Under the pieces are notes generated by a model that did not search any database, was not told the origin of the DNA, and saw only the letters and a program-made list of their open reading frames with translations. A stretch of 64,000 nt of DNA. Origin: Malacoraja senta. Its lineage: Eukaryota. Positions 7,345-62,870 of this stretch are shown piece by piece. The position numbers and the translations under genes are program-made. Each line of letters starts with the position of its first letter. Position 1 is the first letter of the stretch. The DNA lies in assembly GCA_038087875.1 (NCBI GenBank), contig CM075990.1:7566001-7630000 (forward strand). The letters run 5' to 3'.

Positions 7345-7720
7345 GTAGACACAAGCTTGCTGGAGTAACTCAGTGGGTCAGGCAGCATCTCTGGAGGAAA
7401 GGAACAGGAGACGCTTCAGATTCTCATAGGTGGGTACAGAGTTTGGCAGATGCGTGGACAAATGCCGGAGATAGAAAGGGGAAAAAATGGTGTCAAAAGG
7501 ACCCTGTTGGGTGGACAACATTTGCTGCTGTTGACTTTTTGTGGCATTTTGAAGGCAGAAGAGTGAAACTAACAGGAACATTTCGTAGACTGACGAAAGG
7601 TCTCGACCTGAAACGTCACCCATTCCTTCTCTCCAGAGACGCTGCCTGTCCCGCTGAGTTACTCCAGCTTTTTGTGTCTATCTTCGATTTAAACCAGCAT
7701 CTGCAGTTCCTTCCTAAGCA
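7345..7720. mobile_element. Penelope-derived units (minus at about 7345-7420, plus at about 7590-7720)
   Basis: Shared block ccttctctccagagacgctgcctgtcccgctgagttactccagc...ccagcatctgcagttcc. Confidence 0.75.
7590..7617 (+). ncRNA. Minimal hammerhead ribozyme core (N7=C, A-U pair opening stem II)
   Basis: CTGACGA-A-AGGT(CTCG)ACCT-GAAACGTC. Confidence 0.6.
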
Positions 7721-8667
7721 ATTTCAAAGTATTGTAACGTGAAAGATATTTAAGAATCCGCGAACCCCACACATTAACACTATCTCCCACAAATATTATT
7801 GAAACTCTCTTCAACATGTACCAGTTTGGATCAGTTTACTGCACAGTCTGAGATGCTGGTGGACCTGATCAATCCACTGTCTGAAATGGTTGCTGGGGTA
7901 ATGACCAAGATTCCCAGGATTTTGTGGCGTGCATGTGATGTCAAACAGGTATCCGAGACGGATTTCTCTCCTTAAAGCATTGCATCAACGTGACATTCAG
8001 TGCCAGCTATGAGCTCCTCGACCTCAAGCAGGGGACCATAGCCTTTCAACTGAGCCGCTGCTAATCCCTGATTTCGTGGCACTGTGTGCAGAAGCCGCTC
8101 GGGGCAACCGAACAGTTTGTCACTCACGTTGGTTAAAAGCTTCATGAAGTATTGAGAAGCATGAAAGAGGCATCATTCAAAAACCCGCTTGCACACAAGC
8201 CTCTTAAATATATTTCCCTAAAACTAAAACAGAATCTGCTCAGACTTTTAAATAATTGATATTAGATGGATCATAATGGGAAGCCTTCCTTTTAATCATG
8301 CCAAACATGCCTCTTCAGCTTCACGTTTATTTTTAATCATCATTTTTTACCGAGGTACTGTGAAAACTTTGTTTTTGCGCACTGTCCAATTATATCCGAT
8401 AGTACTGCACATAAATACAACTGAGTCAAACACATACAATAGGTAGAGCAAAGAGGAAGATACCGACGCAGAATATATAGCTCGGCATGATGCCTGGAAT
8501 TGCTCCAAGCTTTGAGATTTTATTCAGTCAAGTTGCCTTGCATTTGATCCGAATCACCTCACACGTTAGACCTCAGCTCACATAGCAGTGATGCACTCAT
8601 TTTTCCTCACCCTTTCCTCTCTTTATTAGCCCTGTTTTTTATTCTTGCATCGCCTTTAAGTAATTCA

Positions 8668-8916
8668 GGGTGGCACGCTGCGCCAGAGACCCGGGTTCGA
8701 TCCCGACTACGGGTGCTTGTCTGCAGGGAGTTGACCCAAGTGGGGTTTTCTCCGAGGTCATCGTTTTTTTTCCTCCCGCACTCCACAGACGTACAGGTTC
8801 GTGGGTTAATTGGCTCGGTGTGAATGTAAAATTGTCCCTAGTGTGTGTGGAGTAGTGTGAATGTGCGGGCTCGGTGGGCGAAGGGGCTGTTTCTGCGCTG
8901 CATCTCTAAACTAAAC
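8668..8916 (+). mobile_element. HE1-type SINE
   Basis: B box ggttcgatccc; tail gcatctctaaactaaac. Confidence 0.85.
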
Positions 8917-11024
8917 AAATGAATGACCACACAGACAGGTACCACCCAGGTACTAGTCAGTGCCCCTGCTATGCCTCAACTACATTGTGGTTCTGTCTGC
9001 CTCGTTGGCCAGAGGCTCTCTCTCCCCTGGGTGATGCCTCTGAGGTGTGACGGTCAGTGTCTGGATTTCAGCAGCGCACAGCAAGCAGTCTACTCACTGG
9101 AGATGCTGCTGTTTGCATAATGCGAGGGAGGAGAGGAATAATTATGCAGCAGGTGTCTCTGTCATCTCATTGTGAGGTTGGAGCAGACTCTCGTCCACCG
9201 AGATTACGATTTTTCATGAATTTCAGCAGCCTCTGAGTATGTCATTCCCTTCTTTATGTCCCTGTATTTTCCAATGTCGTGGTGCGCGGCCCCACAGCCG
9301 TACAGATAGCACCGTGCAACATTCCCTCATAGATGCTCAACAGAGAAACAGGTGGCGCAGCGGTAGAGTTGCTGCCTACAGCGCTTGCAGTGCCAGTGAC
9401 CCGGGTTCGATGCCGACTACGGGTGCTGTTCGTACGTTCTCCCCGTGGTTTTTCTCCGAGAGTCTTCTTCGGTCCCACACTCCAAAGACGTACATAGGGT
9501 CACTGTTCCCACGCTGTACCTTCTAAAGAGAGGTTTCAGACTGAACAATTGTCATTGTGTTTGCTTCATGACCTTGCACACAAACCTCCTCACAAACCTC
9601 ATTAATGTCCATGATCCAGAGGATTGGAAGCAAAGTGACAAATGGTGAAGTAACCAGAGGGCAACTAGTTACACATCTATCATGTGGAATGCCAAGTTCT
9701 GCAGTCAGTGGGTCAAGCAGCATCTCTGGAGGGAATGGAGGGGCGATGATTTGGGTCAGAACCCTACTGAAACTGCCACTCCATTCCCTCCATGACCCAC
9801 TGAGTCCCTCCAGTACTTTGATTTTCACTCAAGATTCCAGCATCTGCAGATCCTTGTCATTACACATCTATTAAACCGGTTATATTGCCTTAGAGGCAAC
9901 ACAGTAAGGAAACATGGCCTTCAGTACCACAGGTTCTCATCAATGACAAAGTAACCTACCATGGGATGTGGGAGGAAACCGGAGCACTCGGCAGAAACCC
10001 ACGAGGTCAGAAGGATTTTTCTGCAAACTCCACATGACTTTCAGCAAACTCCAACATGCAAACTCCACACAGACAGCACCTGAGGTTAGGATGGCTGGTC
10101 CTGTGAGACAGCAGCTCTACTGGCTGTGCCACTCTAACAATTATAGAAATAAAGATGGTCACAACCCGACGAAGAACTCAGAAATAAAGAAAGAAGAGAA
10201 AGAAAATGATTGTGAAGATAGACACAAAATGGTGGAGTAACTCAGCCGGACAGGCAGCATCTCTGGAGAGAAGGAATGGGTGACGTTTTGGGTTGAGACT
10301 CTTCTTCAGACCCTACTTCAAGGAAATAACTGTGCTTCAGTCAGTGGTGGGTGTGATATGGAATAATGCCATAAAGGCCACTACCTTGTTTCCAGAACTA
10401 AAATCTGCTGTTATTCCAAAGTAAGAAATGTTCATTGTGGAGTGTGTCATTGTGAATAACAATGGCCTCAGCAGTTGCCTGACATTGGCTTTGGCCCGAA
10501 AATTGAGCCGTTTACCTACAATAATAGTGACAGAGAAACACTAACTCAGCCACGTAAGGAGATGTTATGGCAGATAACCAAAAAGCCAGATTGCAAAAAG
10601 GCGGATTGCACGAAGCAGAGACTTGAGGAGCAGCATTGGAAAATATCAAAAAATTAGCGCTTTGGAATCTAAAGATCCTCAATGATGGGGAGACTCAATT
10701 CAGTTGTGGGCAAGGCCAGATTTTGAGAAGGGCACATACCTCAGAGGGTTACAGAAAGGGCAGTGGACCAACAACGAAATATCCTTTACCAAATTTACTC
10801 AACACTTAACTGGGATCAGTGGCTGGTCGAACTATACTCTACGGTGTATGTCATATGGTGCACAGCTTGCTTAAAGGGTCTATACATATGACATGTACTT
10901 TGCTGCGTTCATTTCTATGAATTCTTTGGGAGGTTAGAGCTGATATTAGCTCACCACTCAGTATCTGTTTTATGCATCAAAGCAAGTTTAATTTCAAGGC
11001 AATAATGCCACAGAGTTGGTGCTC

Positions 11025-11275
11025 AAAGTTCACAGGTTATAGGAGTAGAATTGGGCCATTCGGCCCATCGAGTCTACTCCGCCATTCAACCATGGCTGAT
11101 CTCCGCCTCCTAATCCCATTTTCTTGCCTTTACCCCCATACCCCTTTACACCCGTTAGAATCAAGAATTTGTCTATCTCTGCCTTAACAATATCCACTGA
11201 CTTGGCCTCCACAGCCCTCTGTGGCAATGAGTTCCACAGATTAACTACCCTCTGACTAAAGAAGTTCCTCCTCCC
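11025..11275 (-). mobile_element. CR1-type LINE 3' end
   Basis: RNFFSQRVVNLWNSLPQ. Confidence 0.85.
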
Positions 11276-12159
11276 GGTGCTGGTGCCTTCAGTTCCCGGG
11301 GGATATGGAGAAGAATGAATCTTAAACCCCGGGATGGAGGGAGATGGCTGTGGAAGAGACACCCATCTCCTGAGATGCAGGCCAGGTGTGTCGTGTTGAG
11401 CAGGTCAGGCATCTCAATGGGTTCAAAAAACATTGGGTTTCTTGCACCTGAATTTTAAATGTCCAATATTAAAGTGCATTGTCAACAGAAAATCTTGAAC
11501 ACTAGCTAATGCTGTCAATGCAATCGAATAAAACCCACCAGGAACCAAGCTTCACATTCTGTAACACTCCCACAGAGTGAACAATGAAGACAGGAACAGG
11601 CCAACCCAAAGGAGTATGAAGAACCACAGTCAGGCCAGGGATATTTCCAATTGCAAAGCATCAGGAATATTGAATACAGGGTCAATATAACTGGAGTTCA
11701 TTAGATAGAGGTCGACTTAGATTGAAAGGGCTAACCAATGCCTGACCAACGCTTTGATGCTCTTGTCTTAATGGCTGCAGTTGTGCACCTTTTAATTCAT
11801 TAATATGATGAGGGCGTTCACTGCCCGATCCCCACAACCCCACCTAAAGATGGCAGTGAACCGTTTCATTAAACAGTTGATGAGCTCCGATTCGATTGAA
11901 GTTCAGTTCAATTGAGGGTCCCACTTTCAGAAACGCACTGTACGTCAGTGAACTGAGAGTTCTCTCATCAAACTGACTGATCAGTTTAATGAAAAAACTC
12001 CCACTGCACTGGTGCATGGCCAGTTCCTGACTATAGGCCCCTCAATGATGAAGCGGTTGTTCTATAATTCCAAGTCAGGATGGTGTGTAACATGGAAGCA
12101 AATCGGCAATTAGTGGTGTTCCTCTGCGCCTGCCACTCTTGTCTTTGGTGGGAGAGTTA

Positions 12160-15479: not shown

Positions 15480-15930
15480 TTGTGTTCTACAGAAACAAAG
15501 AACATGTCTTATAGAGGTGTATATCTTTGATCCAACACACTAACACCCCCCCTCCCCACCCGCCACCCCGTTCCCTGTTTTCCCTCTGTCTCTTTCCTGT
15601 TTCTCCCACACTCATTTTGCCTACTATCCCATCCACTTATTTTTCTCCGTTGACCCAACCCCCCTCATCCCCTTTCACCATCATTCCTCCATCTGCCTCC
15701 ACATTTCACTCCTCCTCTCTCCTTATCTCACATCCTTGCGGATCTTTTTCATCTCTAGCCTTTGTCCACCCACCTGCCAATCAAAACCCGCTTCAGCTGT
15801 ATCCACCCATCACTCGCCCACCCCACCTCCTTTCCAGCTTTTTCACCCCTACAATAATCAGCCGGAAGAAGGGTCCCAACCCAAAACATCTATCTATGAT
15901 CCCCACCAGACAGGCTGTCTGACGTGCTGA
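15480..15930 (+). mobile_element. Degenerate Penelope 3' region
   Basis: Pyrimidine-rich tract ending in the decayed core ccggaagaagggtcccaacccaaaacatc. Confidence 0.55.
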
Positions 15931-16247
15931 GTTTAGTTTAGTTGAGAGATACAGCGCGGAAACAGACCCTTTGGCCCAACGAGTCCGTACAAACCAGCCA
16001 TCCCCGCACGTCAACACAATCCTACACACACTAGGGACAATTTACATTCATACCAAGCCAAAGAACCTACAAACCCCTACGTCTTTGGAGTGCGGGACGA
16101 AACCGAAGATCTCGGAAAAAATCTTGTGGTCACGCAGGTCAAGGCAAGAATGTACAAACTCCGTACAGACAGCATCGTAGTCGGGATCGAACCCAGGTTT
16201 CCAGCGCTGTACGGCAGCAAATCCAGCGCTGCACCACCGTGCCACCC
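15930..16247 (-). mobile_element. HE1-type SINE, full length
   Basis: A/B boxes, V domain, tail. Confidence 0.9.
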
Positions 16248-17644
16248 TAGTTGCTCCAGCACTTTGTGTTTTACTTAAGATTCCAGCATCTGCAGTTCCA
16301 TGTGTCCGCCATTAATACCCTCCCACATTTTGTGATTTTCTGTGCCTTATTCGACCAAATGCACACTGCAGGTTTCTTGGAAGTGAATTCCATTTGTCAA
16401 ATCTCTACGTTATTGATCAGCTATCTCCATCCTCCTGCAGGTTACAGCCTTCCACTCACTACCTCGTGGCCAATTTCTGTATTATCTGCAAGCTCCATTA
16501 TTGTGGTACAGATGGCAAGAGGCCAACTAGCCTTGTGGAATCCCTCTTTATCCTAACACTCACAAAAACAGCTATTAACTTTGATCCTTTCCGTTTTGCC
16601 ACTGAGTTAATAATGAATCCATTTGGCATTTTGGTTTTGGGCTTAATGGGTTTGAATTATTTTGTGTAGCCTGATCTGTGTGACAAATGGTCCAGGTGGA
16701 CTACATCAAACAATCACCATAAAATTCATTTGTTAGTCTCTCGGATAAATATAATGGTGAACATAAGGACAAAGGAACCAAAGAGTTTCTAAAATCCATC
16801 CAGGATAATTTTTTAGGACAGTACGTTTCTGGATCACCACGGCAGGAGGTATTGTTGGGAACATAAGGGACTCCAGATGTTGGATTCTGGCGCAACGAAA
16901 CAAACCACTGGAGGAACTCAGTAGTCAAGCAACATCTGTAGAGGCAAAGGGATAGTCAATGTTTTGGGTCGAGACCCTGCATCAGGCATTGCTGGATCTT
17001 GTTCCGAGGAATGAGGGGAGGTGGGTCCACCAAGGATCAGTGGGAGAATATTTGGGATATGATGATCATAGCATCATAGCTATCGGGAAATGGGAGAGTC
17101 TAGGACCAGAGGCCACTGCCTCAGGATAAAAAGGACATACCTTTAGAAAGGAGATAAGAAGGAATTTCTTCAGTCTGGGGGTGAAGAATCTGTGGAATTC
17201 ATTGCTACAGATGGCTGTGGAGGCCAACTCAATAGATATTTATAAGGCGGAGTTTGACAGATTCTCGATTAGTAAGGGTTATGGGGCAAAGGCAAGAGAA
17301 TGGGGTTCAGAGGAAATGATAGATCGGCCATGATTGAATGGCAGAGTAGACTTGATGGGCCGAATGGCCTAATTTTGCTCCTAGAACTTATGAACATGAA
17401 GAAATGAGCCAATTCTTGGCAAAAAGTAATTAATTGGAGGAAAGCCAACTTCAATGAGTTGAGAGTGGATCTGGTCCATGTGAAATTAGAATCGAAAGTG
17501 TAACAGAACAAAGGGCTACCTTTATTGTTCAGGGACAGTTGAGGCACATTCTTATTATGGCCAAAGAAAGAACAAACACTGGAAGGTAAAAGAGATAGAG
17601 AGAAAAATAAAGCCATTCTAGGCCACACACAACAATTGAGATAT

Positions 17645-17855
17645 AGGGAACTGCATATAATGGATTCGAGCAAAACACAAAATGCTTGAGGAACTCAGCA
17701 GGTCAGGCAGCGTCTATGGAGGGAAAAGAGATGACAATTCAGGTCAGGACCCTTCTTCAGACTGACAAAAGGTCCCAACCCGAAACATCGCCTGTCAATT
17801 ATGTCCACAGATGTTGCCTGACCCGTGGAATTTCTTCAGCACTTTAGATTTTGCC
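17645..17855. mobile_element. Back-to-back degenerate Penelope-derived units
   Basis: ggacccttcttcag-a-ctgacaaaaggtcccaacccgaaacatc. Confidence 0.7.
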
Positions 17856-18212: not shown

Positions 18213-19524
18213 GAGAATACATGAGAAAAGTTTAGCCAGCTACATATATATGGGAGTCCACAACCATTTGATAGGCATTTGAATAATAAAAGGTATTGGA
18301 CCGGGAGTGGGGACCAGAGGGGGGGGAAGTGGGAGCTTACACATGGATGCTGTTACTGTAAAGTGTAAATTGAGTTATCAGGGACGTGAGTGCTTCTAGA
18401 GTCAGTGAAGATGGAGATGAATAAGATACCAGATGCATTAAAAACGGACATAATTAGAAGGCTACAAGGCAGTCTGTTTAATGAGTGTTGTGGAACCTTT
18501 TACAGACATTGATCTGTGACAGAATTAATAGTCATCTGGAAACGGACAGCTTAATGAAAGCAAGCCAGCACGGATTTGTCAAGGGGAACTCATGTTTAAT
18601 CAATTGGGTGGAATCTTTTGATGATGTTGCCGATAGAGTTGATGTGGTGTACATGAACTATCAGAAGGTGTTTGATAAGCCAAGGTGCCTTGTTATTCTT
18701 ATCAGTAAAGTTGAAGCTTGTGGCACAAAATGGACATTGACAGCGTGCGGATGGAGTTGGTGAATAGTTGCTCTTTGATGTGAGGACGATATGCAATCTT
18801 TCTCAGGGGTTGTTTTTAAGGACATTGTATTTTTTAATCTATGTTACTGACCTGGACTTGTGAGTGCAACCCACGATTTCTAAATTACCCTGATGGTACA
18901 AACATTTTCAGTTTCAGTTTAGTTTATTGTCACGTGTACTGAGGTACAGTGAAAAGCTTTTGTTGCGTGCTATCCAGTCAGCGGAAAGACAATACATGAT
19001 CACAGTCGAGCCATTTACAGTGTCCGGTTACATGATGAGGGAATAACGTTCAGTGCAAGGCAAAGTCCAATCAAGGATAGTCCGAGGGTCACCAGTGAGG
19101 TAGACAGAAGTTCAAACTTGGCAGTATTGCAACTGTGAAGAGGATTGAGGCTGGTGGAATGGGCAGTGACAAGGCAAGTGAAGTCTAATGCAGAGAAAGG
19201 TGAACCAATGCATTTGGTTTGAAGGATGAGGAGAGGCGATGTGGATAGAGATTAGGCTCTAGAAGAGGTGCAATATCAAAGAGACCTGGGTGTGTGTGTA
19301 GACAACAATGAATGTTGCAGGGCAGGCAGGGAAAGAGGGTGATAAGCTATACCTCATACCAGGCTTTATCAAAGGAGGTGCAGTGCATAAAAGCGGGAAG
19401 ATCATGCTGAAGCTTCATAAAATATGGCCTAGTCTCAATTGATGGTGTTCAATTTTGGTTGCCACTTTGTAGGGAGGATGCGATGGCAACAAGGACGAGC
19501 CAGAAAAGATCTACAAGAGTTATT

Positions 19525-19711
19525 GTTTAAGAAGGAACTGCAGATGCTGGAAAATCGAAGGTAGACAAAAATGCTGGAGAAACTCCGCGGGTGAGGCAGC
19601 ATCTATGGAGCGAAGGATCTAGGCGACGTTTCTGGTCGAGACCCTTCTTCAGACTCCAGTCTTCACTCCATAGATGCTGCCTCACCTGCTGAGTTTCTCC
19701 AGCATTTTTGG
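19525..19711. mobile_element. Palindromic Penelope-derived mini-element (minus-strand hammerhead core at 19625-19652)
   Basis: Inverted arms; imperfect duplication ctacaagag/atatt on both sides. Confidence 0.75.
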
Positions 19712-20061
19712 CTACAAGAATATTTGCTCAGATAAGGACTACATCTGTATCCGCAAGGATAGACTGGAGAGGCTGGGGCCGAATTCTTTCAAGGAAAAGG
19801 CTGAGAGGAGATTTAATGGAAGAATCCAAAACATTGAAGGATGTGGAAAGAATGAATAGTAAAGGGCCATTCCCTGGAGAGAGGTAAAGACCGGAGGTCA
19901 CAGGAATAAAAGAAAGATGTATTAGGATTGACATGAAGAAAAATGTTTTGGCAAAGCAGGTCAGATGTGTGCGGCAGGTTCCATTTTAGCTTTCAAGAGG
20001 GACTTGGATCAATATATGGTGAGCAAGGCCATAAGGAACAGGAGGGTAGCAGAGGTCGTTG

Positions 20062-22097: not shown

Positions 22098-22632
22098 ACA
22101 TTGGGGGAGTCCAGAACTAGTGGTCACAGTTTAAGAATAAGGGATAGGCTATTTAAGACTGAGGAAAAACATTTTCACCCAGAGAGTTGTGAATCTGCCA
22201 CAGAGGGCAGTGGAGGCCGATTCACTGAATGCTTTCAAGAGAGAGTTATATTTTAACTCTTAGGGCCTAAGGAATCAAGGGATATGGGGAGAAAGCATGA
22301 ACGGGGTACTGATTTTAGATGTTAAAGAAGGAACTGCAGATGCTGGAAAATCGAAGGTACACAAAAATGCTGGAGAAACTCAGCGGGTGCAGCAGCATCT
22401 ATGGAGCGAAGGAAATAGGCAATGTTTCGGATCTGAAGAAGGGATTTCGGCTCGAAACATTGCCTATTTTCTTCGTTCCATAGATGCTGCTGCACCCGCT
22501 GAGTTTCTCCAGCATTTTTGTGTACCTACTGATTTTAGATGATCAGCCATGATCATATTGAATGGCAGTGCTGGCTTGAAGGGCTGAATGGCCTACTCCT
22601 GCACCTATTTTTCCATGTTTCTATGTTTCTAA
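22098..22632 (+). mobile_element. CR1-type 3' end interrupted by a Penelope mini-element
   Basis: Same family as 6455-7235. Confidence 0.85.
22322..22526. mobile_element. Palindromic Penelope-derived mini-element with 15-bp TSD, inside a CR1 tail
   Basis: TACTGATTTTAGATG at 22307-22321 and 22527-22541; about 80-bp inverted arms around a hammerhead core. Confidence 0.85.
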
Positions 22633-24508: not shown

Positions 24509-24536
24509 CTGAAGAAGGGTCTCGACCCGAAACGTC
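24509..24536 (+). ncRNA. Minimal type I hammerhead ribozyme core (Penelope-associated)
   Basis: CTGAAGA-A-GGGT(CTCG)ACCC-GAAA-CGTC. Stem I is not convincing. Confidence 0.7.
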
Positions 24537-25471
24537 ACCCATTCCTTCTCTCCAGAGATGCTGCCTGTCCCGCTGAGTTACTCCAGCATTTTGTGTCTAC
24601 CTTCGATTTAAACCAGCATCTGCAGTTCCTTCCTACACGTTTTGTCTGCTCAACGCTCCTATTTCTGTGCTCAGTGGTGCGTGCCCACCAAGATTAATTC
24701 CTGGATGACTATCTGGAGATTACTACCTTTGGGCTTCTGCTTCATATTCTCCGCGCAAAATCCTTAACATCTGCCTTCAGCGGCTCATCCCGTTATCCAC
24801 TGATGTCACTGGTAACAACAGCTTTCTGCCATTCTCCTTCCACCTTCAAAATGTGCTGCAGCTTCTCAGTTATGTCCATGACTCTGGCACCAAGGAGGTA
24901 ACACACTATCCTTGAATCACTGCTGTGACCACAGAAGCATCTGTCTTCTCTCCCACCCATTGAACTGTCATAATATCGCTGTCCACACCTTTCTCCTCCC
25001 TCCCACACAGCAGTAACTGGCAGGAAGACGCAGAGTGCTGGAGTAACTCAGCGAGCCAGGCAGCATCTCTGGAGGACATGTGTAGATACTGTTTCAGATC
25101 GAAACGCTTCTTCAGACCGAACGTCGTCTATCCACTTCTATGGTTATCCATGCCCATCAGATTAAAGAATGGTCTTGACCCAAACCATCGACCATCCATG
25201 TCCTCCAGAGATGCTGCCTGACCCGTGGAGTTAACCCAGAACTTAGTGCTTCACTCAAGATTCCACCTAGAACCTTCTCCCACTGGAATTCTGAAATGAA
25301 AACAGAAAATGCTGGGAACACTCAACATGTCAGGCAGCATCTGTGGAGAGAGAAACAACATTTTCTCTCCCCTTTTACATATTGATGAGGAGGCAAGATT
25401 CTCTCAGGCGGGCTCCACTTTCTTTGCCCAGTCGCTCGCGCCCGCACTTTCTTGAGCCAGAAGTGACCACC

Positions 25472-26432: not shown

Positions 26433-26434
26433 CT

Positions 26435-26482: not shown

Positions 26483-27378
26483 GTACCTGATGGGAAATAG
26501 TCTGGAGTTCCCACATTCCACAAAGCAGGAATGCCCTGCCATACTAATGAATATTAGCTTGGCACACGAAACAGATATATACAGAATAAAAATATCCTTC
26601 ATCCATCACCTAATCCCCTCTGTCCCCTCAGTTTAGAAGTGCTCCATGATCACTATGCTATTTAATTCTATGCTATCCATCATTCTGAAGAAGGGTCCTG
26701 ACCCAAAACAGCGTTTGGCCATTTCCCTCCACAGATGCTGCCTGACCCGCTGAGTTCCTCCGGTGCTTTATCGAGTGACATCCAATCCCCTTTAGGATTT
26801 ATTTTCTGGAGCCTTTCATTTTTTTACTCATCCGCAGAATGGAAAAATTCCCTCGGAGACCTGTTCTGTCAACAGCCCCCAGAGTTTTTAATTTTTATTA
26901 GGTCACCCCACAGCCTTCACGATGCAAAAGCAAGCCAGTTTGCTCAATCCTTCCTGCTTAGTGTAACCTCTGGGCATCATCCTTGCAAATTGTTTCACTT
27001 AAAATACATTTGTCGTATGAAATTCTCCCCAACTCAAAATAAATCAAAATAAATATCATTCATAGGTTGGAACATAGAACAGTGCAGCACTGGAACAGGC
27101 TCTTTGTCCCACAAGGTCTGTGCCAACATGTTGCCAAGACTGACCTTTATCTGCTTACACATGATCCATATCCCACCATTCCCTGTACATTCATGTGCTT
27201 ATCCAAAAGTCTCTTAAACACCACGATCGTATCTGCCTCCATCACCACCCCTGGCAGCACTCATCACCCCCCTGTGTAAAAGACTTGCCACGCACCTCTC
27301 CTTAGAACAGAGAATATTAGAAACACTGAGCAGATCAGGTAGTATCTGTGGAGGGAGAAACAGTTAAGCTTTCAAGTC

Positions 27379-27470
27379 TGAAGAAGGGTTTCGACCCGTA
27401 ACGTTGCCTATTTCCTTCGCTCCATAGATGCTGCCTGACCCGCGGAGTTTCTCCAGCATTTTTGTCTACC
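27379..27470 (+). mobile_element. Penelope-derived mini-element with 14-bp TSD
   Basis: TAAGCTTTCAAGTC at 27365-27378 and 27471-27484. The insert starts at the CTGAAGA core. Confidence 0.85.
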
Positions 27471-27539
27471 TAAGCTTTCAAGTCCTTGCCCTTTCATTAT
27501 TTCCAATTGTGTTATTTAATCCAATGATTCAATTCAATG

Positions 27540-34670: not shown

Positions 34671-35283
34671 ACAGATACGTATTAGCATATAGACAGCATA
34701 TAGACAGCAACCATAGTCAGGATCGAACTTGGGTCTCTGGCGCTGTCAGGCAGCAAGTCACTGCACCACTAATGCTGCCCTGTACTTTGCTAATCCTGAC
34801 ACAAAGTGCTGGAAGAACTCAGCAGGTCAGACAATATCTCTGGTTTTGGTTCAGGACCCTTCTTCAGAAACATCACCTATCAATGTTCTCCAGAGATGCT
34901 GCCTGACCTGCTAAGGTATTCCAGCACTTTTTTTGCATAACAGCATCTGCAGTTCTTACTTTCTATACAAAGCTAATCCTGTTTTATTCTCCCCATATTG
35001 TCATAAATTCCCTCCCCCCCTCAGATTTAACCACTTACCTATGCACTGAAGACAATGTAGAGGGGCCAATGAATCATGTACCTTCATCATGTATCTGTGC
35101 AAAGTGGACGGTTCGATCGTAATCATGGATTGTCTGCGCTGCCAGGTTGGCACGCAACAAAAGCTTTTCAATGTACCTTGGTACACCTGACAATAAACTA
35201 AACTAAACTAAACTGTAAACTAACCACTGGAGAAAACCCACACGACTGGTCCCATGCAAACTCCACACAGAAAGTTGCAGGGG

Positions 35284-38840: not shown

Positions 38841-40160
38841 TTCAACCAGGCATGACTTGGTTTGAGTTACTTTGACAAGGAGTGTCACAGATGTTTGTCC
38901 AGATGTGAAACTAGAGCATGAAGAGGTTTGGCCACAGCTGGTGACGAGGTCAGTCATTGGCACTTGAAGCAGGCCATTTATCCAGATGTGTCATAGTAAC
39001 TGGACCAGATTTACAACAAAATTGGTCAAATGCCAATCCAGGTGTTCGACCATATTTGTCCTAGGTATTAGGTCAGGTTTAATTTTTAGGTTAGAAATAC
39101 AGCGTGAAAACAGGCCCTTTGGCCCACCAAGTCCATGCCGCCCTGCAGCACTATCCTACACAAATTAGGGACAATTTACAATTCTTACTGAAGCCAATTA
39201 ATCTACAAACCTGCACATCTTAGGAAACCGGAGCACCTGGGGAAAACACACGTAGTCATGGGGAGAAGATACAAACTCAGTACAGACAGCACCCGTAGTC
39301 TGGACTGAACCTGGGTCTCTGGCGCTGTAAGGCAGCAACTGTACCACTGCACCACCATGCCACCGTGGTACCAGGTGTTGAGAAAAGATGTCCCAGGTGT
39401 TTGAGGTCTTGTATGTATCTTATTGGGCACAGCTGCTTTACCAAGTATGCCGTTTGTGCCTGTCCCACCAAGGGACAGATATGGAGGAGGGCCATCATGA
39501 ACCGTGGTCAGATGTGATGCAGATGATTGATCAGTTGTGTCGTGGACAAGTTATTGCGACACATCTGGGCAAATGGCCTGCTTCACATTTGGTTAAATAT
39601 CTGTTAACACTCCTGTGGGCATAAAATCAACCAAGTGTACACCTGTACCATGTTCTGTGGCTCGACATTCTGTGGCGTGTCTGGTCGAGCCCCACTGTCA
39701 CATCTAGCTGGACATGTGGCGCACCAGGCCAAACAATCGCAACACATCTGACCATAAATTCCTGCAGCATCTGGGTCACACTGCCTCTGTTGACCCCCCT
39801 AACACACCAGAGCCACATCCGGTCACACCGTGTCACACCTGCTCATGTGCCAATGACAGACCTGGTCACCAGCTGTGGCCACACCTCTTCATGCTCGACT
39901 TCCACATCTGGACAAGCATCTGCGACACTCCTTGTCAAAGTAACCCAGGTCTCGACCTGAGGCATCACCCCTTCCTTCTCTCCAGAGACGCTGCCTGTCC
40001 CGCTGAGTTACTCCAGCATTTTGTGCCTATCTTCGCGGTAAACCAGCATCTGCAGTTCCTTCCTACACGGTAAACCAAGTCATGCCTGGTTGAATATCCT
40101 CATCATACCTTGTCAGGCAGCCATTCAACACCTGGCCAAACAGCTGCTCCACATCTGGTG
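38841..40160. mobile_element. Old foldback/MITE-like element rich in CANNTG, carrying a nested SINE and a Penelope unit
   Basis: 38841-38973 is the reverse complement of 39838-39945 plus 40072-40094. Confidence 0.7.
39080..39365 (-). mobile_element. HE1-type SINE nested in the foldback element
   Basis: Head, V domain and tail on the minus strand. Confidence 0.85.
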
Positions 40161-41237: not shown

Positions 41238-41415
41238 GACACATATACACACATATACAGATCAGTCTGAAGAAGGGTCTCGACCCGAAACGTCACCCAT
41301 TCCTTCTCTCCAGAGATGCTGCCTGTCCTGCTGAGTTACACATACACAAACACACACATAGACACACAGACACAGACAGACACGCATATACAAACTCTCA
41401 CACACACACACGCAC
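40910..41415. repeat. Complex (CA)n/(CATA)n tract containing a Penelope unit
   Basis: Direct inspection. Confidence 0.9.
41267..41294 (+). ncRNA. Minimal hammerhead ribozyme core
   Basis: CTGAAGAAGGGTCTCGACCCGAAACGTC. Confidence 0.7.
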
Positions 41416-44039: not shown

Positions 44040-45480
44040 TTATGCCAGATATAATCTCATTAAATCAGGGGCAATATTCCTGAAACTGATTTTGACTGGA
44101 GACTCTGACGTTCTGGGCAGATGGAGTTGGCCAGAGTTGACTGTGCTAGCGCGCTGAATACGCTGGTGAATTTCAGCATTGATGGCTGCCTTTGCAGAGA
44201 TGTGGCTCCCAAGATATGGAAGGGGCTCATTGTTCTGCGGTGTCTCATTGTGGCCCTTTACTGTCAGGGAGCAGTGTTCTGCAGCGAGGACAAGCTGGCA
44301 ATGGCCTTTGTTTTGCAGATTTGTGTTATCTCGCATGCTTCAGTGAATAAATCATCAGTGCCTTGCAGCATATCTGCACTCTGCAGCTCAGTGACTAAAG
44401 TTGGGCGATCGTTGCTCTGCAGTTTGAGCTCTTTCCCGTTCGCTCTGAAGGTTAGCTCCAGTCTTATTTTTTTTTTGGAGATAAAGTGAAGTCGGGCGGA
44501 TTGAGAGAAGATAGACACAAAATGCTGGAGTAACTCAGCGGGACAGACAGTATCTCTGGATAGAAGGAATGGGTGACATTTCAGGTCGAGACCCTTCTTC
44601 AGATTGAGAGAAATGTTGAGACAATGCCACTGCCTTGCTGACCACCATTTTGTACTGAGATTGACCCAGTTTTTCACCCATGGATTAAGATCGCAGTTGG
44701 TACGTCATCATAGAGTTACAGAGCTCAGAGCCATAGCGCTGTACAAACCCAGAAACAGGATCTTTGGCCCACCTTGATCACACTGGGCTAGTCCAATTTG
44801 CCTGCATTTGGCCGAGAGCCTTCTAATCCCATCCCACCAGTCTAAAGCATGAAGAGCCTCCTGCTGTTGACAAGTTTTGGTGAAGACAGCTATGACGGTG
44901 GCATCTATGATACGTTCATGTTCATAGGTTCTAGGAGCAGCATTAGGCCCTTCGGGCCATCAAGTCTACTCCACCATTCAATCATAGCTGATCTGTCTTT
45001 CCCTCTCAACCCCATTCTCCTACCTTCTCCCCATAACCCCTGACATAACCCCTACTAATCAATAATCTATCAATCTGCGCCTTAAAAATACCCAATGACT
45101 TGGCCTCCACAACCATCTGACCCCTTTTCCCAGTGTGTCCCATTTTCAGAGATGAGGATGAGTTTAACTGACATTTCTCTCCATTGAGGTTTAGAACTTC
45201 AGCTGGGAGATCATCTGTTCACCAAGCCTAGTTGTTTCTCAGTTGACATGTGGCCTTCAGACTCCCCATGGTAGTAGTGGTGGGAGCAACAGTTCACAGT
45301 GAGATAGAGTCAAGGGTGATGGACTTCAAGGACAGAGCCGTGGTTAAGGAGTTATTCCAATGTTCCTTCCGGCATGTCCTGACTGCCTCTCTCTACTTAA
45401 TAAGCACATCTCCCTTCCTGGTTATCAAACGAATGGACCTGGGATGTGTGATCCATAAATGGCCTTGACAACAGTGAGAA
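44040..45480 (-). mobile_element. Degraded RTE-clade ORF with nested insertions
   Basis: VKAIYG; TELQSAD (LQYADD equivalent); PYLGSHISAKAAINAEIHQRIQRAS. Confidence 0.65.
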
Positions 45481-46045: not shown

Positions 46046-46046
46046 A

Positions 46047-46365: not shown

Positions 46366-47074
46366 GTACAGAATACTTCAAATGTTCCCCAACCTTTGTC
46401 CTATAAAGCTGCATCACGACATCTGGACTGTTATATTGCCCTGACATAAGAAGGCAAGCATGCCATATGCCTCCTTTACGAGTCAATTGTGGAGGGAATG
46501 GACAGATGACATTTTGGGTCGGGACCCTTCATCAGATTGTTATCAGCAAGTCGGCGGAGCTTGTGGGTTTTGTCCACTCCTGAGTTCCAAGTTCCTAAGT
46601 TTAGTTGATTGTCACGTACTGAGGTGCAGAGGAAAGCTTGTTTGGTTGCATGCTGACCAGTCAGTGGAACGACAACATATGATTGTCTTTCCGCTCACCA
46701 TCCTTTCTCCAGATCAGGGCGACCCTGTTGGCCTTCAACCCCCAAGTACCTGCATTGCTGTGCCTGTTGACAGGAAACACTGTGCCTCTCTCCACAGTCG
46801 CTGCCTAACCTGCTGAATATTTCCAGCATGTTCTGCTTTTGTACCAGGTTTTGCAGCATCTTGTCATTTTGTGCTTGCCCATGCATAGTCCCTCCCCATC
46901 TCTGGGAGGTTCCTTCACACTGTATTTCTTCTGCATGTCTTGCCTGCAGATATTTATAGGCAGATTTCTTCCGTCCGTGTTCGGATTTGTCTTTTCCCAG
47001 ATATCTCCATTCCCCTACACCTATGCTGTCTTGCTGTGCATGAGTGTTAAAACACTTCAAGCGCCGACACTCAC

Positions 47075-49565: not shown

Positions 49566-49601
49566 ATCACAAACATGGAAACAGGCTCTCAGTCTCTTCA
49601 G

Positions 49602-49712
49602 AAGGGTTTCAGAAGAGTCTGAAGAAGGGTTTCGGCCCGAAACGTTACCTATTTCCTTCGCTCCATAGATGCTGCTGCACCCGCTGAGTTTCTCCAGCAT
49701 TTTTGTGTACCT
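49602..49712 (+). mobile_element. Penelope-derived mini-element with 15-bp TSD
   Basis: TCTCAGTCTCTTCAG at 49587-49601 and 49713-49727. Confidence 0.85.
49619..49646 (+). ncRNA. Minimal hammerhead ribozyme core (UUCG-capped stem II)
   Basis: CTGAAGA-A-GGGT(TTCG)GCCC-GAAACGTT. Confidence 0.6.
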
Positions 49713-49759
49713 TCTCAGTCTCTTCAGCTCGTTGAGTCCATGATGATCATCAAACACTC

Positions 49760-51330: not shown

Positions 51331-52164
51331 GGAAGATACCATCTCTGGAGAACATGGATTTGGATCAGGACCCTTCTTCAGACTGATGGTAGGGTGGAAG
51401 AAAGGTCCAGGCCCAAAAGGACAGCTATCCACATCCTCCAGAGACGCTGCCTGATCCGTTGAGTTACTCGAGCACTTTGTATCATCTTTGTAAACCAGCA
51501 ACTGCTGTTCCTTGTTTCTGAGAAGCAAAGAAGGATGCTCCTAAACTGTGCAGAGAATATAAAAGTAGAGAGCTCTTGCTTAAACCATATCGAGCATTAG
51601 TTGGACCAAAACGAAAGTATAATGCACAGTTCTGCTCACCACACCACACAGGTACCTCATGACAGCTATAGAGATGGTGCAGAAGATACTTACAAGGGTA
51701 TTGCCTGGGATGGAGAATTATCGTTATGGGGAGAGATTGACTCAGCTGGGATTGTAGTTTGACTGAGCGAATTATTAAATATTTAAATCAAATTATATGT
51801 GGTCTTGACAGGATAAATATGAAAGAACTGAGAGCAGAAAGATTGATAACATCAGCATAAATGTAAAATTGTTAATATTGGCGAGGATTTGTGTAAAAGC
51901 TGCGTCCCCTCTGCTCCAGAACAAAGCACACCGCTTCCACAGGACTCCAGCTACAATGTGCAGATCCCAATAAAGGTCCACGGCAGGACCCTGGAACACA
52001 TACATCGCTTCCCACATCTCAGGAACCAGCGATGATGAAATTCATCACCTTTAATGCACCAGCACAGCCTTTAGGTCTCGACCTGAAACGTCACCCATTC
52101 CTTCTCTCCAGAGATGCTGCCTGTCCAGCTGAGTTACTCCAGCTATTTGTTCTATCTTTCGTTT

Positions 52165-56640: not shown

Positions 56641-56819
56641 GTGTCGGAAGGAACTGGTTTAAACCGAAGATGGACACAAAAAGCTGGAGTAACTCAGCGA
56701 GACAGGCAGCATCTCTGGAGAGAAGGAATGGGTGACATTTCGGGTTGAGACCCTTCTTCAGACCCATTTTGTTCCAGCGTTTGGAGTCCTGCATCCCATG
56801 AACATCCATCCTTTATTTA

Positions 56820-58652: not shown

Positions 58653-58699
58653 CACAGTGGAATGGGTCTTACACACTCTCATTGCGGACTTGTAAATAG

Positions 58700-59869: not shown

Positions 59870-60376
59870 TACTTCTACCAATACCGCCGTCAACAGACAC
59901 AGACATTACATTTTTCTGTCGATAAGTAGATTTACCCCTCACCTAGGTTTACTCATCAATGTGGCAGCAATGCCATCGTGTCGTGTGAGTCCGTGCCAAT
60001 CATCGAGCACCTACGCCAGTCCTGTTATATCCTCTCCACATCCCTGTCAACCTGCCTCACATTCTAACAGGTTCACCAGGGGCAGTTTACGATGGCCAGT
60101 TGACCGACCACACATCTGAGGGATGTGGAAGGAAACTGGAACAACTCCAGGAATGGAAGTCTCTCAGCCACTGAATGCAGAGCGTGCTATCACAGGCTAT
60201 CCCACTGACCTACCACATGCTCATTGACCTGCTGAGACCACGCTAACCCAAGAAACACAGCTTGGGAACTCAAATTCAAATCTCCAACACGGCCTGCCTT
60301 GAGCGATTGCAATTTTCGCTGCACCAGGCCAACTAAGAGATGGGTGGAGAACTCAAAAAGGGCACCTTCTCCTCAC

Positions 60377-60615
60377 CACTGCGTAGAGAGCTCTGGAGTA
60401 GAGAGTGGAGAACACATCAGGCATCCTGTGTGGGTATGTCTGCCTTGTTCAGACATTTGTGAGTAGTGCAGGCAATTTTGTGGATTATGGATCAGTCTAT
60501 CTAAGGCGTGAGCATCTCCTTTGATCAACTCTCCAGTTTCTTCTGCTTCTGAACATGATTCCACACACATCACCACACGTGTCTCTACGTACACAGTCCT
60601 CACTGCTCTCCCCTC
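60377..60615 (-). CDS. Possible isolated exon (EGRAVRTVYVETRVVMCVESCS...)
   Basis: Polypyrimidine acceptor ctctctttcttttcgaag and donor TG|GTGAGG. 79 open codons in unique sequence; no recognisable domain. Confidence 0.25.
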
Positions 60616-60745
60616 CTTCGAAAAGAAAGAGAGCGTCACATATTCACATTCATTAATTCACCCTTCCCCAAAGATTCTATCTGGGATCTTCTCACAGGAA
60701 AGGTGGCCATTGTCATTGCGTCCATTTGGTTTGAGAAAGAATGAG

Positions 60746-61068
60746 TAGGAAGGAACTGCAGATGCTGGTTTACACCAAAGGTAGACACACAATGCTGGAT
60801 TCGTACCCACTCGTTATCACCTCTTCCACCGCCAACAATGGACCATTGTGGGCTCCACTTTTCCTTGATCATCCTTGCTGGCCTTGATTTGTTCTTTTCA
60901 TATCTTTCATTCTTTTGCTCTTTGTACCCCCTCATACCTCCAGTTTCCCTCTCCCCTGATTCTCAGTCTGAGGAAGGGTCTCGACCCGAAACGTCGCCTA
61001 TTCCTTTTCTCCAGAGATGCTGCCTGGCCCGCTGAGTTACTCCAACTTTTTGTGCCTATCTTTGGTTT
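60746..61068. mobile_element. Longer Penelope 3' fragment (pyrimidine-rich tail plus hammerhead unit) with an inverted partial copy
   Basis: Inverted gtaggaaggaactgcagatgctgg, then a pyrimidine-rich tract leading into the core at 60968. Confidence 0.7.
60968..60995 (+). ncRNA. Minimal hammerhead ribozyme core (N7=G)
   Basis: CTGAGGAAGGGTCTCGACCCGAAACGTC. Confidence 0.7.
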
Positions 61069-61443
61069 GAGAAAGTTGTGGCTTCGTGATCCACTTCTGT
61101 GGTATATTATTTCTTCCAGTCTCTTTTGTAATCACCTGAGACACAAAACAGGAAGTTCTCTTGTATATCTTTGACAGAACGTGTCATAAACATGATTTTA
61201 TCTACCAATATCTCTCTCTGTCTCTCTGTACTGCACACTTCTGCTAATACGCCAACAACTTACAAATGTCACCTTTGCTATTCGCTGTTGACACCAAACT
61301 GTGTCGTGTTGTTTGAACTGTTCCTCAACGTAACTTGAATCATAATTTCATTTTTCCCCCCAGAAAAGCAGCTCGTCTACTCATTACCGACTCAGCAGAA
61401 ATATAGCTTGTTGTGGAACGTGGTGTCATCTTCAGTTTAGTGT

Positions 61444-61652
61444 GGGGAGATAAAAATGCTGGAGAAACTCAGCGGGTGAGGCAGCATCCATTGAGCGAAG
61501 GAATAGGTGACGTTTCTTCAGACTGAAGAAGGGTCTCGACCCGAAACTTCACCTATTTCCTTCGCTCCATGGATGCTGCTGCACCCGCTGAGTTTCCCCA
61601 GCATTTTTATCTACCTTTGATTTTTCCAGCATCTGCAGTTCCTTCTTAAACA
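61444..61652. mobile_element. Palindromic Penelope-derived mini-element with 13-bp TSD
   Basis: TTCAGTTTAGTGT at 61431-61443 and 61653-61665; inverted arms. Confidence 0.85.
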
Positions 61653-61665
61653 TTCAGTTTAGTGT

Positions 61666-62260
61666 AGTTTAGTTTATTATTGTCACGTGCATCGAGGTAC
61701 GGTGAAAAGCTTCCTTGTTGCATGCTATCCAGTCAGTGAAAATACTATACATGATTACAAACTAGCCGTCCACAGTGTACAGTTACAGGATAAAGGAAAT
61801 AACATTTAGTGCAAGATAAAGTCCAGTAAATTCCAATTGAAGATAGACCGAGGGTCTCCAGTGTAGATGGTCTGTCATGATTCAGTTGCCCGATAACAGC
61901 TGGGAAGAAATCTGAATGCCCCTGAATCTGGAGGTGTGCGTTTTCACACTCCTGTACCTCTTGCCTGACGGGAGAGGGGAGAAGAGGGAGTGAGTGGGGT
62001 GAGTGGCGGGTTATGTTGTTGGTCGTATGGTTCAGTTGCTTGATAACAGCTGGCAAGAAACTGTCCCTGAATCTGGAGGTGGGCGTTTTCACACTTCTAT
62101 ATATCTTGCCGGGGTGCGACCTGATTATGCTGGTGGCCTTGCCGAGGAAGCGTGAGTTGTAAATAGAGTCAAAGGAATGGAGGCTGGTTTGTGTGATGGT
62201 CTGGGCTGCGTCCACAATTCTTTGCAATTTCTTGCGGCCTTGGATGGAGCTGTTCCCACC
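61666..62260 (-). mobile_element. Rex1/Babar-like 3' fragments (internally duplicated)
   Basis: RKKLQRIVDAAQTIT...TSRFRDSFLPAVIKQLN. Confidence 0.75.
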
Positions 62261-62842
62261 ATTATAGACAATAGACAATAGACAATAGGTGCAGGAGTAG
62301 GCCATTCGGCCCTTCTCCCGCCAGGGATTATTTATTGTAGAATTTAAGCCATCGGCCATCATGTTTTTGAGATGTAGGAAGAAACCAGAGAGCCAGGTGG
62401 AGGGAGAGTGGTGGGACCCATGTAGTTATAGAGAGAACCTGCAAACTCCACACTGAAAGCACCAACGATTAAGATTGAATCCAGGTCAGTGAAGCTGTGG
62501 GGCAACAGCACTACCTGCTGCATCACTATGGCACCTGCTGTTGAGGTTTTTCTCTGTATGAATATGTACTGAGCTATCGAATCAGCACTGATCCTAGTAT
62601 TCAGATATTCCCTCTGCTATAGTTGTGTCTGTTAGTTCATCATCTTGATGACTTAATTTTATCTTGTCATTTGTAGCTTAAAATAAACCTTCTGTAATCT
62701 TTTCACCCTGCAAGGTAATTTTGTGTAGGAGTAAAGACCTTATTAGTGTTAATCATTAAATACTTCTGATAGTGTTCATCCACGTTCAGTTGACAACATG
62801 CATGTCAAAGATCGGTGAAAACTTTGACTCCTGCCCATCAGT

Positions 62843-62870
62843 CTGAAGAAGGGTCCCGACCCGAAACGTC
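62843..62870 (+). ncRNA. Minimal hammerhead ribozyme core
   Basis: CTGAAGAAGGGTCCCGACCCGAAACGTC. Confidence 0.7.

Follow-up and report, generated by a model that had tools for sequence, protein, structure and literature searches.

Background

The occurrence of minimal hammerhead ribozymes in the pLTRs of Penelope-like elements (PLEs) of metazoans is already documented in the 2014 survey by Cervera and de la Pena (PMC4209133). The motifs in the portions of that survey considered here combine CUGANGA, one extra base, a G10.1-C11.1 pair, GAAA and a UH triplet with a CG palindrome at 15.2-16.2 and no loop 3; they are mainly solo motifs genome-wide, with opposite-strand pairs 100-700 bp apart, and the Acropora Neptune row has a 4-bp stem II with a tetraloop. 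Helix I is mostly 3-5 bp in the published rows and 2-6 bp overall, with 2-bp precedents in Drosophila, Culex and Oikopleura (Fig. S3), and in the same portions minimal PLE hammerheads show no activity as monomers and little as dimers.

Insertions of EN+ PLEs (Penelope/Poseidon, Neptune) show 5' truncation, an inverted copy joined to the 5' end through a palindromic junction, an optional tail of 30-40 bp at one end, and a short target-site duplication (Craig et al. 2021, PMC8557442; Arkhipova et al. 2013, PMC3846280). In Poseidon of Anolis carolinensis, where both protein and ribozyme have been assayed, the ribozyme is protein-assisted, two 3' end points delimit a tail, and the template for insertion is uncut RNA (Frangieh et al. 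2024, PMC11167929). Animal non-LTR retrozymes, reported in one chondrichthyan, are non-coding, hammerhead-bearing, likely PLE-derived and present in very high copy number (PMC7229834; bioRxiv 10.64898/2026.07.22.740005).

The repeat described here comes from a 64-kb window of Malacoraja senta DNA, by which we mean the whole stretch analysed. It shares each of the listed features of the minimal PLE motif, including the stem II and tetraloop of the Acropora row, but its helix I is only 0-2 bp (7 bp in one copy). Its insertions resemble those of EN+ PLEs except that all in the window are without RT/GIY-YIG coding sequence, and in contrast to Poseidon it is known from sequence alone. Whereas retrozymes are arranged in tandem, usually carry canonical type I hammerheads and give circular RNAs, the copies here are dispersed or head-to-head and have minimal cores. 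No cartilaginous fish was found among the rows of Fig. S3 and Table S1 of the 2014 survey considered here, and the density here extrapolates far above the ~4,000 (coelacanth) and 9,000 (Xenopus) motifs given there.

A dispersed repeat with a minimal hammerhead core

A degenerate 28-letter core pattern (at most 3 mismatches) has 19 matches in the window, one per 3.4 kb, against none in 100 dinucleotide shuffles, which bears out the original prediction of a dispersed motif at about one per 3 kb. As the copies descend from few masters, these are not 19 independent observations. Copies at 22433 (one inserted base), 39947 and 52073 (both 5'-truncated and without CUGANGA) were recovered by blastn. 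Under a strict descriptor eight cores are intact, with CUGANGA, GAAA and UH around stem II, at 7590, 24509, 41267, 49619, 60968 and 62843 on the plus strand and 44602 and 56761 on the minus strand; chance expectation in Markov-simulated sequence is ~0.3 per 64 kb, with a maximum of 2 in 180 simulations.

62838..62978, + strand: near-complete unit; intact minimal core whose C3 is at 62843, with cleavage predicted after 62870; stem I of 2 bp, downstream block, tail of ~35 nt
24509..24642, + strand: unit with intact core and tail; 1-bp stem I; numbering reference
60725..61075, both strands: insertion of composite structure; the tail arm 60734-60799 (-) is inverted, ~165 nt of pLTR-like sequence lie upstream, and the core at 60968 (+) is intact and lacks a tail; target-site duplication of 15 bp (60725-39 / 61061-75)
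56645..56768, - strand: unit with 7-bp stem I from flank; catalytic core intact, palindrome reduced to wobble pairs
49587..49727, + strand: unit inside a perfect 15-bp target-site duplication; core at 49619 intact, with UUCG loop and GUU triplet
41261..41339, + strand: 3'-shortened unit, intact core at 41267, inserted into a CA microsatellite; head-to-head with 40767-40904 (-) at a distance of 357 nt
44497..44612, - strand: unit with 13-bp target-site duplication; catalytic core at 44602 intact, palindrome of wobble type
7345..7722, both strands: head-to-head pair; arm 7345-7419 (-) with core deleted and tail absent, arm 7585-7722 (+) with core intact at 7590, 0-bp stem I and tail

The intact core is thus kept in 8 of the 22 copies originally listed; the other 14 are mutated or truncated, and they include several that had not been listed as decayed: the stem III palindrome is broken at 61523 and 40873, G12>A is present in the copies listed at 10282 and 46508, and the G10.1-C11.1 pair is broken in that listed at 19625. 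Core position 7 does vary as predicted (A 21, C 2, U 2, G 1 among 26 copies), both U copies also carrying G12>A. The extra base between A9 and 10.1 is A in all 26 aligned copies; the 10.1-11.1 pair, over 25 rows, is GC in 16, GU in 4, AU in one and unpaired in 4; and the 15.2-16.2 palindrome of the eight intact cores is CG in six and a UG wobble in two. The predicted minimal type I architecture of PLE kind agrees with the published consensus (PMC4209133, text and Fig. S3). The Rfam check proposed with the original prediction, a covariance-model search of the window and two single copies, matched no hammerhead family at E up to 10.

The motif is the 5' part of a dispersed repeat of ~95-135 nt, laid out as CUGANGA, extra A, 4-bp stem II and GAAA-CG-UH. 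The listed copies, about 20, are present at the positions originally given, but the family is larger: blastn gave 52 merged segments, of which 49, covering 6.4% of the window, were analysed after removal of two target-site hits of 15 nt and a weak hit of 31 nt. Repeat depth in genome-wide contigs backs the very high copy number that had been proposed, and intact cores extrapolate to ~10^5 per Gb. The family appears to be very abundant, and its apparent copy number is its sole notable aspect. Further copies and pairs are the following.

61431..61667, both strands: head-to-head fold-back pair, 61452-61516 (-) / 61520-61655 (+); 15-bp target-site duplication; (+) arm with core at 61523, broken palindrome and tail; folds as one long hairpin
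22307..22543, both strands: head-to-head pair with a 17-bp target-site duplication, forming a long hairpin; the (-) arm 22319-22433 carries the tail and the (+) arm 22432-22535 a decayed core at 22433
19511..19721, both strands: head-to-head pair; the (-) arm 19522-19656 has its core at 19652 and a tail, the (+) arm 19661-19715 is short
17647..17845, both strands: older head-to-head fold-back pair; both cores decayed, 17760 (-) and 17762 (+)
27365..27484, + strand: unit with A13>U at 27378; perfect 14-bp target-site duplication
10208..10314, - strand: unit whose core (C3 at 10309) carries G12>A; stem I of 4 bp, likely arisen via a short local duplication
15747..15933, + strand: decayed unit; its upstream pLTR-like sequence is of a second type and has 35 nt in common with the stretch upstream of 7419 (-)
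25014..25248, both strands: decayed head-to-head pair
34789..34981, both strands: decayed head-to-head pair; 10-bp target-site duplication, tail on + arm
51340..51513, both strands: decayed head-to-head pair; tail on + arm
39947..40069, + strand: 5'-truncated unit without CUGANGA, tail present
52073..52164, + strand: 5'-truncated unit without CUGANGA
16865..16985, - strand: decayed unit with A9>C and G12>A, tail present
26677..26761, + strand: decayed unit with G12>A and U16.1>G
46490..46539, - strand: short decayed unit with U at position 7 and G12>A

Insertion marks and a probable Penelope-type origin

Eleven head-to-head pairs lie within 170 nt in the window. The tail of ~35 nt is on exactly one arm in nine of them and on both arms in none (p=0.025), a one-sidedness described for PLE insertions (PMC8557442, PMC3846280). 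Target-site duplications of 10-17 bp are frequent around the units; those of at least 11 bp flank 7 of 25 insertions, one of the seven being a microsatellite artefact, against 0 of 289 mismatched flank pairs.

In a metagenome collection the same core pattern is matched twice, each time beside a PLE-type RT gene. One (L002) adjoins a 902-aa ORF with RT and a weak GIY-YIG match, relatives of which are found in Chiloscyllium, Stegostoma and Mobula; the other (L001) adjoins a broken PLE-type RT ORF on the opposite strand. These two instances have only the ~30-nt core in common with the window repeat. The window itself yielded no PLE coding remnant (tblastn best E 1.5, profile search best E 0.42), so the repeat is not physically tied here to a PLE gene, and as there is no RT plus GIY-YIG ORF the copies are filed as non-coding ends rather than autonomous elements. 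The PLE derivation originally proposed thus gains from the insertion marks and the neighbouring genes elsewhere, but not from any gene in the window; the copies likely represent ends of Penelope-type elements that were left stranded.

The unit starts within a few bases of the hammerhead core and has two alternative 3' end points ~35 nt apart. Among 42 scoring segments the 3' ends are bimodal, with 17 at +121..136, 21 at +83..106, 4 earlier and none at +107..120. None of the 42 starts at the predicted cleavage site (+26..33) and none ends there, the earliest end being at +46; this is in line with uncut RNA as the template for insertion, as in the anole PLE (PMC11167929). At the 5' side, 18 of 23 cores share at most 6 nt of upstream sequence with other copies (two of these 18 have long upstream element sequence of other types).

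Decay, folding and catalytic competence

At catalytic G12 and in the stem III palindrome, decay proceeds at CpG rates, and G12 is unprotected. G12>A is present in 9 of 28 copies and 16.2 G>A in 10 of 28, and in three runs of genome-wide contigs G12>A takes 12.2%, 10.7% and 8.7% of depth, compared with 6.9-11.8% at a non-core CpG. Stem II is paired in 94% of alignment cells, so that its predicted pairing stands, but there is only one double change and hence no covariation; in the covariation check proposed for the whole structure, 72 of 500 shuffles score at least as high. Given CpG-rate decay and shuffle-level covariation, the original reading of hammerhead constraint in the variation among the copies is not supported. 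Non-CpG core positions are less variable than the downstream block (11/253 versus 77/753, p=0.003), as expected if source lineages kept the core, though this contrast is biased because the copies share descent and were chosen by their core.

Stem I measures 0, 1, 1, 2, 2, 2, 2 and 7 bp in the eight intact cores. The predicted limit of 2 bp accordingly holds for seven of them and is exceeded at 56761 (7 bp) and, outside the intact set, at 10309 (4 bp), which carries G12>A. Copy 56761 is the only one predicted to fold stems I and II, both with probability near 1; in six of the other seven intact copies the predicted probability of stem II is at most 0.02 (0.5 at 7590), and that of stem I is ~0. 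In the case of the 62843 core, the best dimer fold (-23.7 kcal/mol) is more stable than a double-hammerhead fold (-6.1 kcal/mol). Between neighbouring intact cores on one strand the distance is 1.9-17 kb, and head-to-head arms are predicted to bury the core inside long hairpins. Since a 2-bp stem I is low even for PLE hammerheads, the source ribozyme may itself be degenerate. The doubt about catalytic competence voiced at the outset is strengthened by G12 decay, shuffle-level covariation and, except at 56761, unfavourable predicted folds; judged from sequence and folding models, the dispersed copies are likely mostly relics, nearly all of them catalytically inert.

Competing explanations

We consider it probable that the copies are short pLTR ends of an EN+ PLE family spread by reverse transcription, with the minimal hammerhead as a passenger that is nearly always inert. 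By analogy with the PLE literature, the PLE protein would nick the target and prime reverse transcription at either of two internal sites, which would give copies with or without the tail; the template would be RNA uncut by the ribozyme, and synthesis would halt or fold back near the 5' edge of the hammerhead, leaving solo units and hairpin pairs. The core would be conserved in source elements, and inserted copies would then decay neutrally. For the source element we consider a dimer- or protein-assisted ribozyme likely; its core would cut after GUC/GUU only as a dimer sharing the ACGU helix and/or with the PLE protein.

The clustering of 5' ends could instead mean that the unit is a SINE-like or retrozyme-like non-autonomous element, copied whole by the PLE enzyme from its own short transcript, so that the 5' end is that of the RNA and not a truncation. 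Transcription would start at TCAGT just 5' of the core, which we take to be initiator-like, and rare head-to-tail dimers would be active, self-cleaving sources. An initiator-like TCACT is reported in rotifer pLTRs, depth in run X1 climbs across 60945-60989 from 0.55 million to 9 and then 24 million, and other parts of the genome do contain tail-to-core head-to-tail joints (11, 10 and 14 contigs in run X1, single contigs in X18 and X20). The 5' ends nevertheless scatter over about 10 nt rather than marking a single site, and the depth step is exaggerated, since upstream sequence of other types drops below 80% likeness. The joints are a tiny fraction of depth at several positions (60963, 60964, 60966, 61007), and the window has no tandem array; retrozymes, moreover, have canonical hammerheads and derive from cleaved RNA, while no copy here starts at the cleavage site. 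We regard this explanation as rather unlikely. Quite unlikely is its boldest form, a ~135-nt non-autonomous PLE partner inserted as whole copies of a short hammerhead-initiated transcript, with 10^5-10^6 copies the densest vertebrate hammerhead family yet, in which long stems I rebuilt by a flank or a fold-back arm, such as that at 56761, would give thousands of competent dimer- or protein-switched cleavage sites in host transcripts.

Eight intact cores in 64 kb, the fold predicted for 56761, the 2-bp helix I precedents in the 2014 rows, and the presence of the repeat in contigs of two runs presumed to be RNA (which is not proof of transcription) might suggest that a sizeable share of the copies are working ribozymes that cut host transcripts as trans dimers or via flank-extended stem I. 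The folding predictions for the other copies and for the 62843 dimer, the wide spacing and burial of cores, and the unprotected G12 all weigh against this, as do published minimal PLE hammerheads, which in the sources as consulted are inactive as monomers, weak as dimers or PLE-protein-dependent (PMC4209133, PMC11167929), and we hold it very unlikely. At the other extreme, the repeat could be the end of another retroelement, such as a LINE/SINE tail, its hammerhead-like letters a coincidence in one much-copied master; few masters do stand behind all copies, and the failed Rfam match, absent covariation and lack of a PLE gene in the window would fit. Yet 11 of 11 conserved core bases are present together with PLE-specific extras, and ~0.3 strict motifs per 64 kb by chance means ~1 in 1000 for a given 135-nt unit. 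Head-to-head arms and a tail optional on one arm are PLE marks, poly(A) or simple-repeat tails of LINE/SINE type are absent, and PLE-type genes adjoin both outside matches, which makes coincidence extremely improbable.

Conclusions

The known association of minimal hammerheads with PLE terminal repeats is extended here to a very abundant family, in a lineage absent from the rows of the 2014 survey considered (PMC4209133). About 6% of the window is now assigned as probably PLE-derived, which would explain its many long hairpins. Only cleavage in cells by copies whose stem I has been rebuilt would give the finding greater importance. The numerous copies are a natural record of the ends of PLE insertions, one that is in line with insertion from uncut RNA and shows the one-sided tail.

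The hammerhead motif and its repeat unit

The original prediction placed about 20 minimal hammerhead cores in units derived from Penelope-like elements (PLEs), and the motif was confirmed at the positions it named by a core pattern, a strict descriptor and blastn on the window. A degenerate 28-letter core pattern gave 19 matches at no more than three mismatches, on both strands, and none in 100 shuffles, while the strict descriptor (all core bases, a stem II of at least 3 bp, a palindromic stem III and UH) retains eight copies where simulated sequence yields an expectation of ~0.3. On alignment of the copies, none of the cores at 39938, 52064, 25160 and 51393 (copies are named by core start) is intact. 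Searches by blastn with five seed copies reveal that the motif is the 5' portion of a longer repeat, and produced 52 merged segments in the window. We analysed 49, leaving out two 15-nt target-site matches and one weak 31-nt match; together the 49 make up 6.4% of the window (4,115 bases). Since the copies stem from few masters, their number is evidence of a repeat family and not of independent ribozymes.

Intact copies run in the order CUGANGA, an extra A, stem II of 4 bp capped by a tetraloop, GAA, ACGU, and then C or U. The minimal hammerhead of PLEs, as described in PMC4209133, shares an extra base after A9, a G10.1-C11.1 pair and a palindromic 15.2-16.2, and its motifs too are mostly solo, with some in opposite-strand pairs. 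By sequence, the window motif is the minimal hammerhead described for PLE terminal repeats (pLTRs). An Rfam covariance search with the window and two single copies returned no hammerhead family, only sub-threshold matches to miRNA hairpins. Helix I is weak in the eight intact cores (0, 1, 1, 2, 2, 2 and 2 bp, and 7 bp once, at 56761), and two-bp helices are known in the PLE rows of Drosophila, Culex and Oikopleura (PMC4209133). Position 1.1 is A in 18/28 and G in 9/28 aligned copies, either of which pairs with U2.1, and is A at 76% in contigs of sequencing run X1.

Insertion marks

Segments were aligned to the 24509 copy as reference, and 42 of the 49 scored at least 50. The 3' ends of these 42 lie at +83 to +106 (21 segments) or +121 to +136 (17), with none between and four earlier. 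There are 11 head-to-head pairs with arms at most 170 nt apart, and the longer 3' end is found on exactly one arm in nine pairs, while no pair has it on both arms (p=0.025). Target-site duplications of at least 11 bp flank 7/25 tested insertions as against 0/289 mismatched flank pairs, one of the seven being a microsatellite artefact, and three further insertions have 10-bp duplications. Fold-back junctions at 7590, 17762 and 61523 centre on a small palindrome made up of the four bases before the core and its first four. Inverted 5' copies, palindromic junctions and 8-10-bp duplications have all been described for PLE insertions, as has a 30-40-bp tail, often at one end only (PMC8557442, PMC3846280); in an anole PLE, the tail derives from two internal reverse-transcription start sites (PMC11167929). 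The window repeat behaves as one would predict of a PLE end.

Surrounding repeats and the link to PLE genes

The window is a repeat-rich eukaryotic stretch, with the following further features:

53685-55685, minus strand: non-LTR reverse transcriptase, uninterrupted 666-aa ORF (RVT_1, E 2e-28) within AT-rich sequence
15930-16253, 21396-21713, 26131-26444, 28106-28412, 12159-12468 and others, both strands: abundant SINE-like family of ~300 nt (repeat families D6-D9, D13-D18)
6418-7335, 30186-31246, 48050-48495, among many: decayed LINE 3' ends (translated frames)
58233-58704: minisatellite, ~14 units of 30-34 nt with CA runs

The reverse transcriptase is the sole long ORF of the window. Its protein is 88% identical to an assembled protein; among named relatives, a little-skate gene model has the highest identity (66%, covering half of the query), and teleost proteins reach ~52% over the whole query. 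We take the ORF to resemble a young L1/Tx1-type copy. The SINE-like family, in which ARAGORN called no tRNA gene, presumably resembles the elasmobranch HE1 SINE, the decayed LINE ends are presumably of the CR1/L2 kind, and we assume that the SINE and LINE fragments resemble those of sharks and rays. On these grounds the host is likely a cartilaginous fish close to skates. Directly after a SINE end, at 26435-26482, three tandem 16-nt units, with CTGACGAAAC in each, match a loose hammerhead pattern and have no stem II.

No PLE gene or coding remnant was detected in the window by a motif scan, by tblastn (queries of 1 and of 147 proteins), or by a 55-sequence profile. The core pattern has two matches across the metagenome collection (loci L001 and L002), each adjoining a PLE-type gene, and none in viral contigs or in prokaryote genome contigs. 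L002 is an apparently intact PLE:

Metagenome contig of L002: minimal hammerhead at 10-37, 902-aa RT/GIY-YIG-type ORF at 194-2902

This ORF, which follows the core, matches reverse transcriptase (RT) at E 5e-6 and, weakly, GIY-YIG at its C-terminus (E 0.015; a homologue at 52% identity passes the cut-off). Stem I of L002 is likewise only 1 bp. In L001 the core points away from a broken ORF, which matches the L002 ORF at E 7e-27. Both loci have only the core in common with the window. Annotated proteins of the same group as the L002 ORF come from Chiloscyllium, Stegostoma and Mobula; loci of a ray PLE protein were sought in viral contigs and none was confirmed. A putative PLE origin of the window repeat is well supported.

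Stem I at 56761

56762-56768, minus strand: 7-bp stem I, the sole such copy (candidate origins: a chance flank, a short fold-back or another source RNA)

The proposal that 56761 and 10309 were copied from a spliced RNA, in which a first exon completes stem I, is not supported. The upstream flanks of both match no other repeat copy beside a core, loose contig ends ahead of the core differ among themselves (agreement 0.33-0.36), and there is no GT..AG skip among the 15 joints listed from contigs on 60690-61130 (there are 688 more). The 7-nt match flanking the 56761 copy on both sides is at chance level, 7-8-nt matches being found in 128/289 controls. In Drosophila virilis, a PLE intron ends at helix I. 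Splice-acceptor-like pyrimidine tracts ending in CAG are located at 60940-60966, just before a core, and at 60997-61011, ~15 nt past the cleavage site, and other copies carry the same tracts around the core.

Variation among copies

Across 30 aligned copies, each masked to its aligned span, the dispersed copies show no sign of ribozyme constraint. G12 is changed to A in 9/28 and 16.2 to A in 10/28; mutated CpGs amount to 17/28 and 14/28 at two core CpGs, 9/28 in the loop and 6/27 downstream. In contigs of three runs, the G12>A share of depth is 12.2%, 10.7% and 8.7%, and two changes at a control CpG reach 11.3/8.8%, 11.8/6.9% and 7.6/7.2% in the same runs (among the differences listed; there are 47 more). 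Variation at position 7 and in stem II had been read as obeying hammerhead rules, which is not supported as a sign of constraint on the copies: in an alignment of 25 cores (L001, L002 and 23 of the window's own), covariation is no higher than in shuffles despite 86% pairing. At non-CpG positions of the core, departures from the majority base are fewer than in the downstream block (4.3% vs 10.2%, p=0.003), a contrast that fits core conservation in source lineages but is biased by choice of copies.

Genome-scale abundance

Nine organisms share some of the sequence words of 59900-63400. Contigs of four runs were placed on 60690-61130 at 80% likeness (X1 198,615; X18 16,788; X20 15,834; X24 28). 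X1 matches best and may be the source of the window itself; X18 and X20 are putative RNA runs. Depth in X1 is 24-37 at the unique flanks versus 24-56 million across the unit; as this is no copy number, we take from it no more than an indication of a very large family. The 60968 core is preceded by sequence that is also repetitive, at lower depth. Joints linking the tail end to a point shortly ahead of the core were seen in 11, 10 and 14 contigs, and head-to-tail neighbouring units occur elsewhere in the genome, where they are rare and heterogeneous. Eight intact cores per 64 kb extrapolate to ~125,000 per Gb, from one window that may not be typical. Published counts, from descriptors that require a longer helix I, are ~4,000 minimal motifs in coelacanth and ~9,000 in Xenopus (PMC4209133), and 126,247 canonical hammerhead motifs in axolotl (PMC7229834).

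Origin of the dispersed copies

Minimal hammerheads in PLE terminal repeats are a kind known since 2014. The papers listed in literature searches include no prior description of the window family, which is weak evidence. A 2026 preprint on retrozymes covers one chondrichthyan (bioRxiv 10.64898/2026.07.22.740005), and a term search of the main text of a preprint about genome size in sharks and rays gave no mention of Penelope or ribozymes.

Coincidental likeness to a hammerhead is very improbable. Widespread active ribozymes are improbable, if less so. Predicted stem II probability is at most 0.02 in six of the eight intact copies, 0.5 at 7590 and ~1 only at 56761. Minimal PLE hammerheads are reported as inactive alone and weak as dimers (PMC4209133), and in Xenopus eight of nine predicted dimers gave no cleavage (bioRxiv 10.64898/2026.07.22.740005). 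The proposal that the core and the downstream pyrimidines evolved to pair as an 'off' hairpin was rejected, shuffled downstream sequence lowering stem II equally in 7-33% of shuffles; these shuffles attribute the rival pairing to base composition.

None of the 42 segments starts at the cleavage site, and the templates were therefore uncut RNA, as reported for an anole PLE element (PMC11167929). A non-autonomous PLE partner with a short transcript is an unlikely source, yet a better candidate than either active ribozymes or coincidence. We consider it probable that the copies are stranded pLTR ends, inserted from uncut RNA and carrying a minimal hammerhead, that are decaying neutrally. They would come from one PLE family by target-primed reverse transcription of an uncut RNA template; in the source element the minimal hammerhead would need to dimerise or to have the PLE protein's help in order to work, and neutral decay would follow insertion.

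Head-to-head pairs are predicted to fold as long hairpins with the core buried inside. Those at 22378-22505, 61452-61655 and 17647-17845 are hairpins of 80-110 bp, and one head-to-head hairpin matches a plant miRNA model at 41 bits, where the cut-off is 73. If transcribed, such loci could yield much double-stranded RNA.
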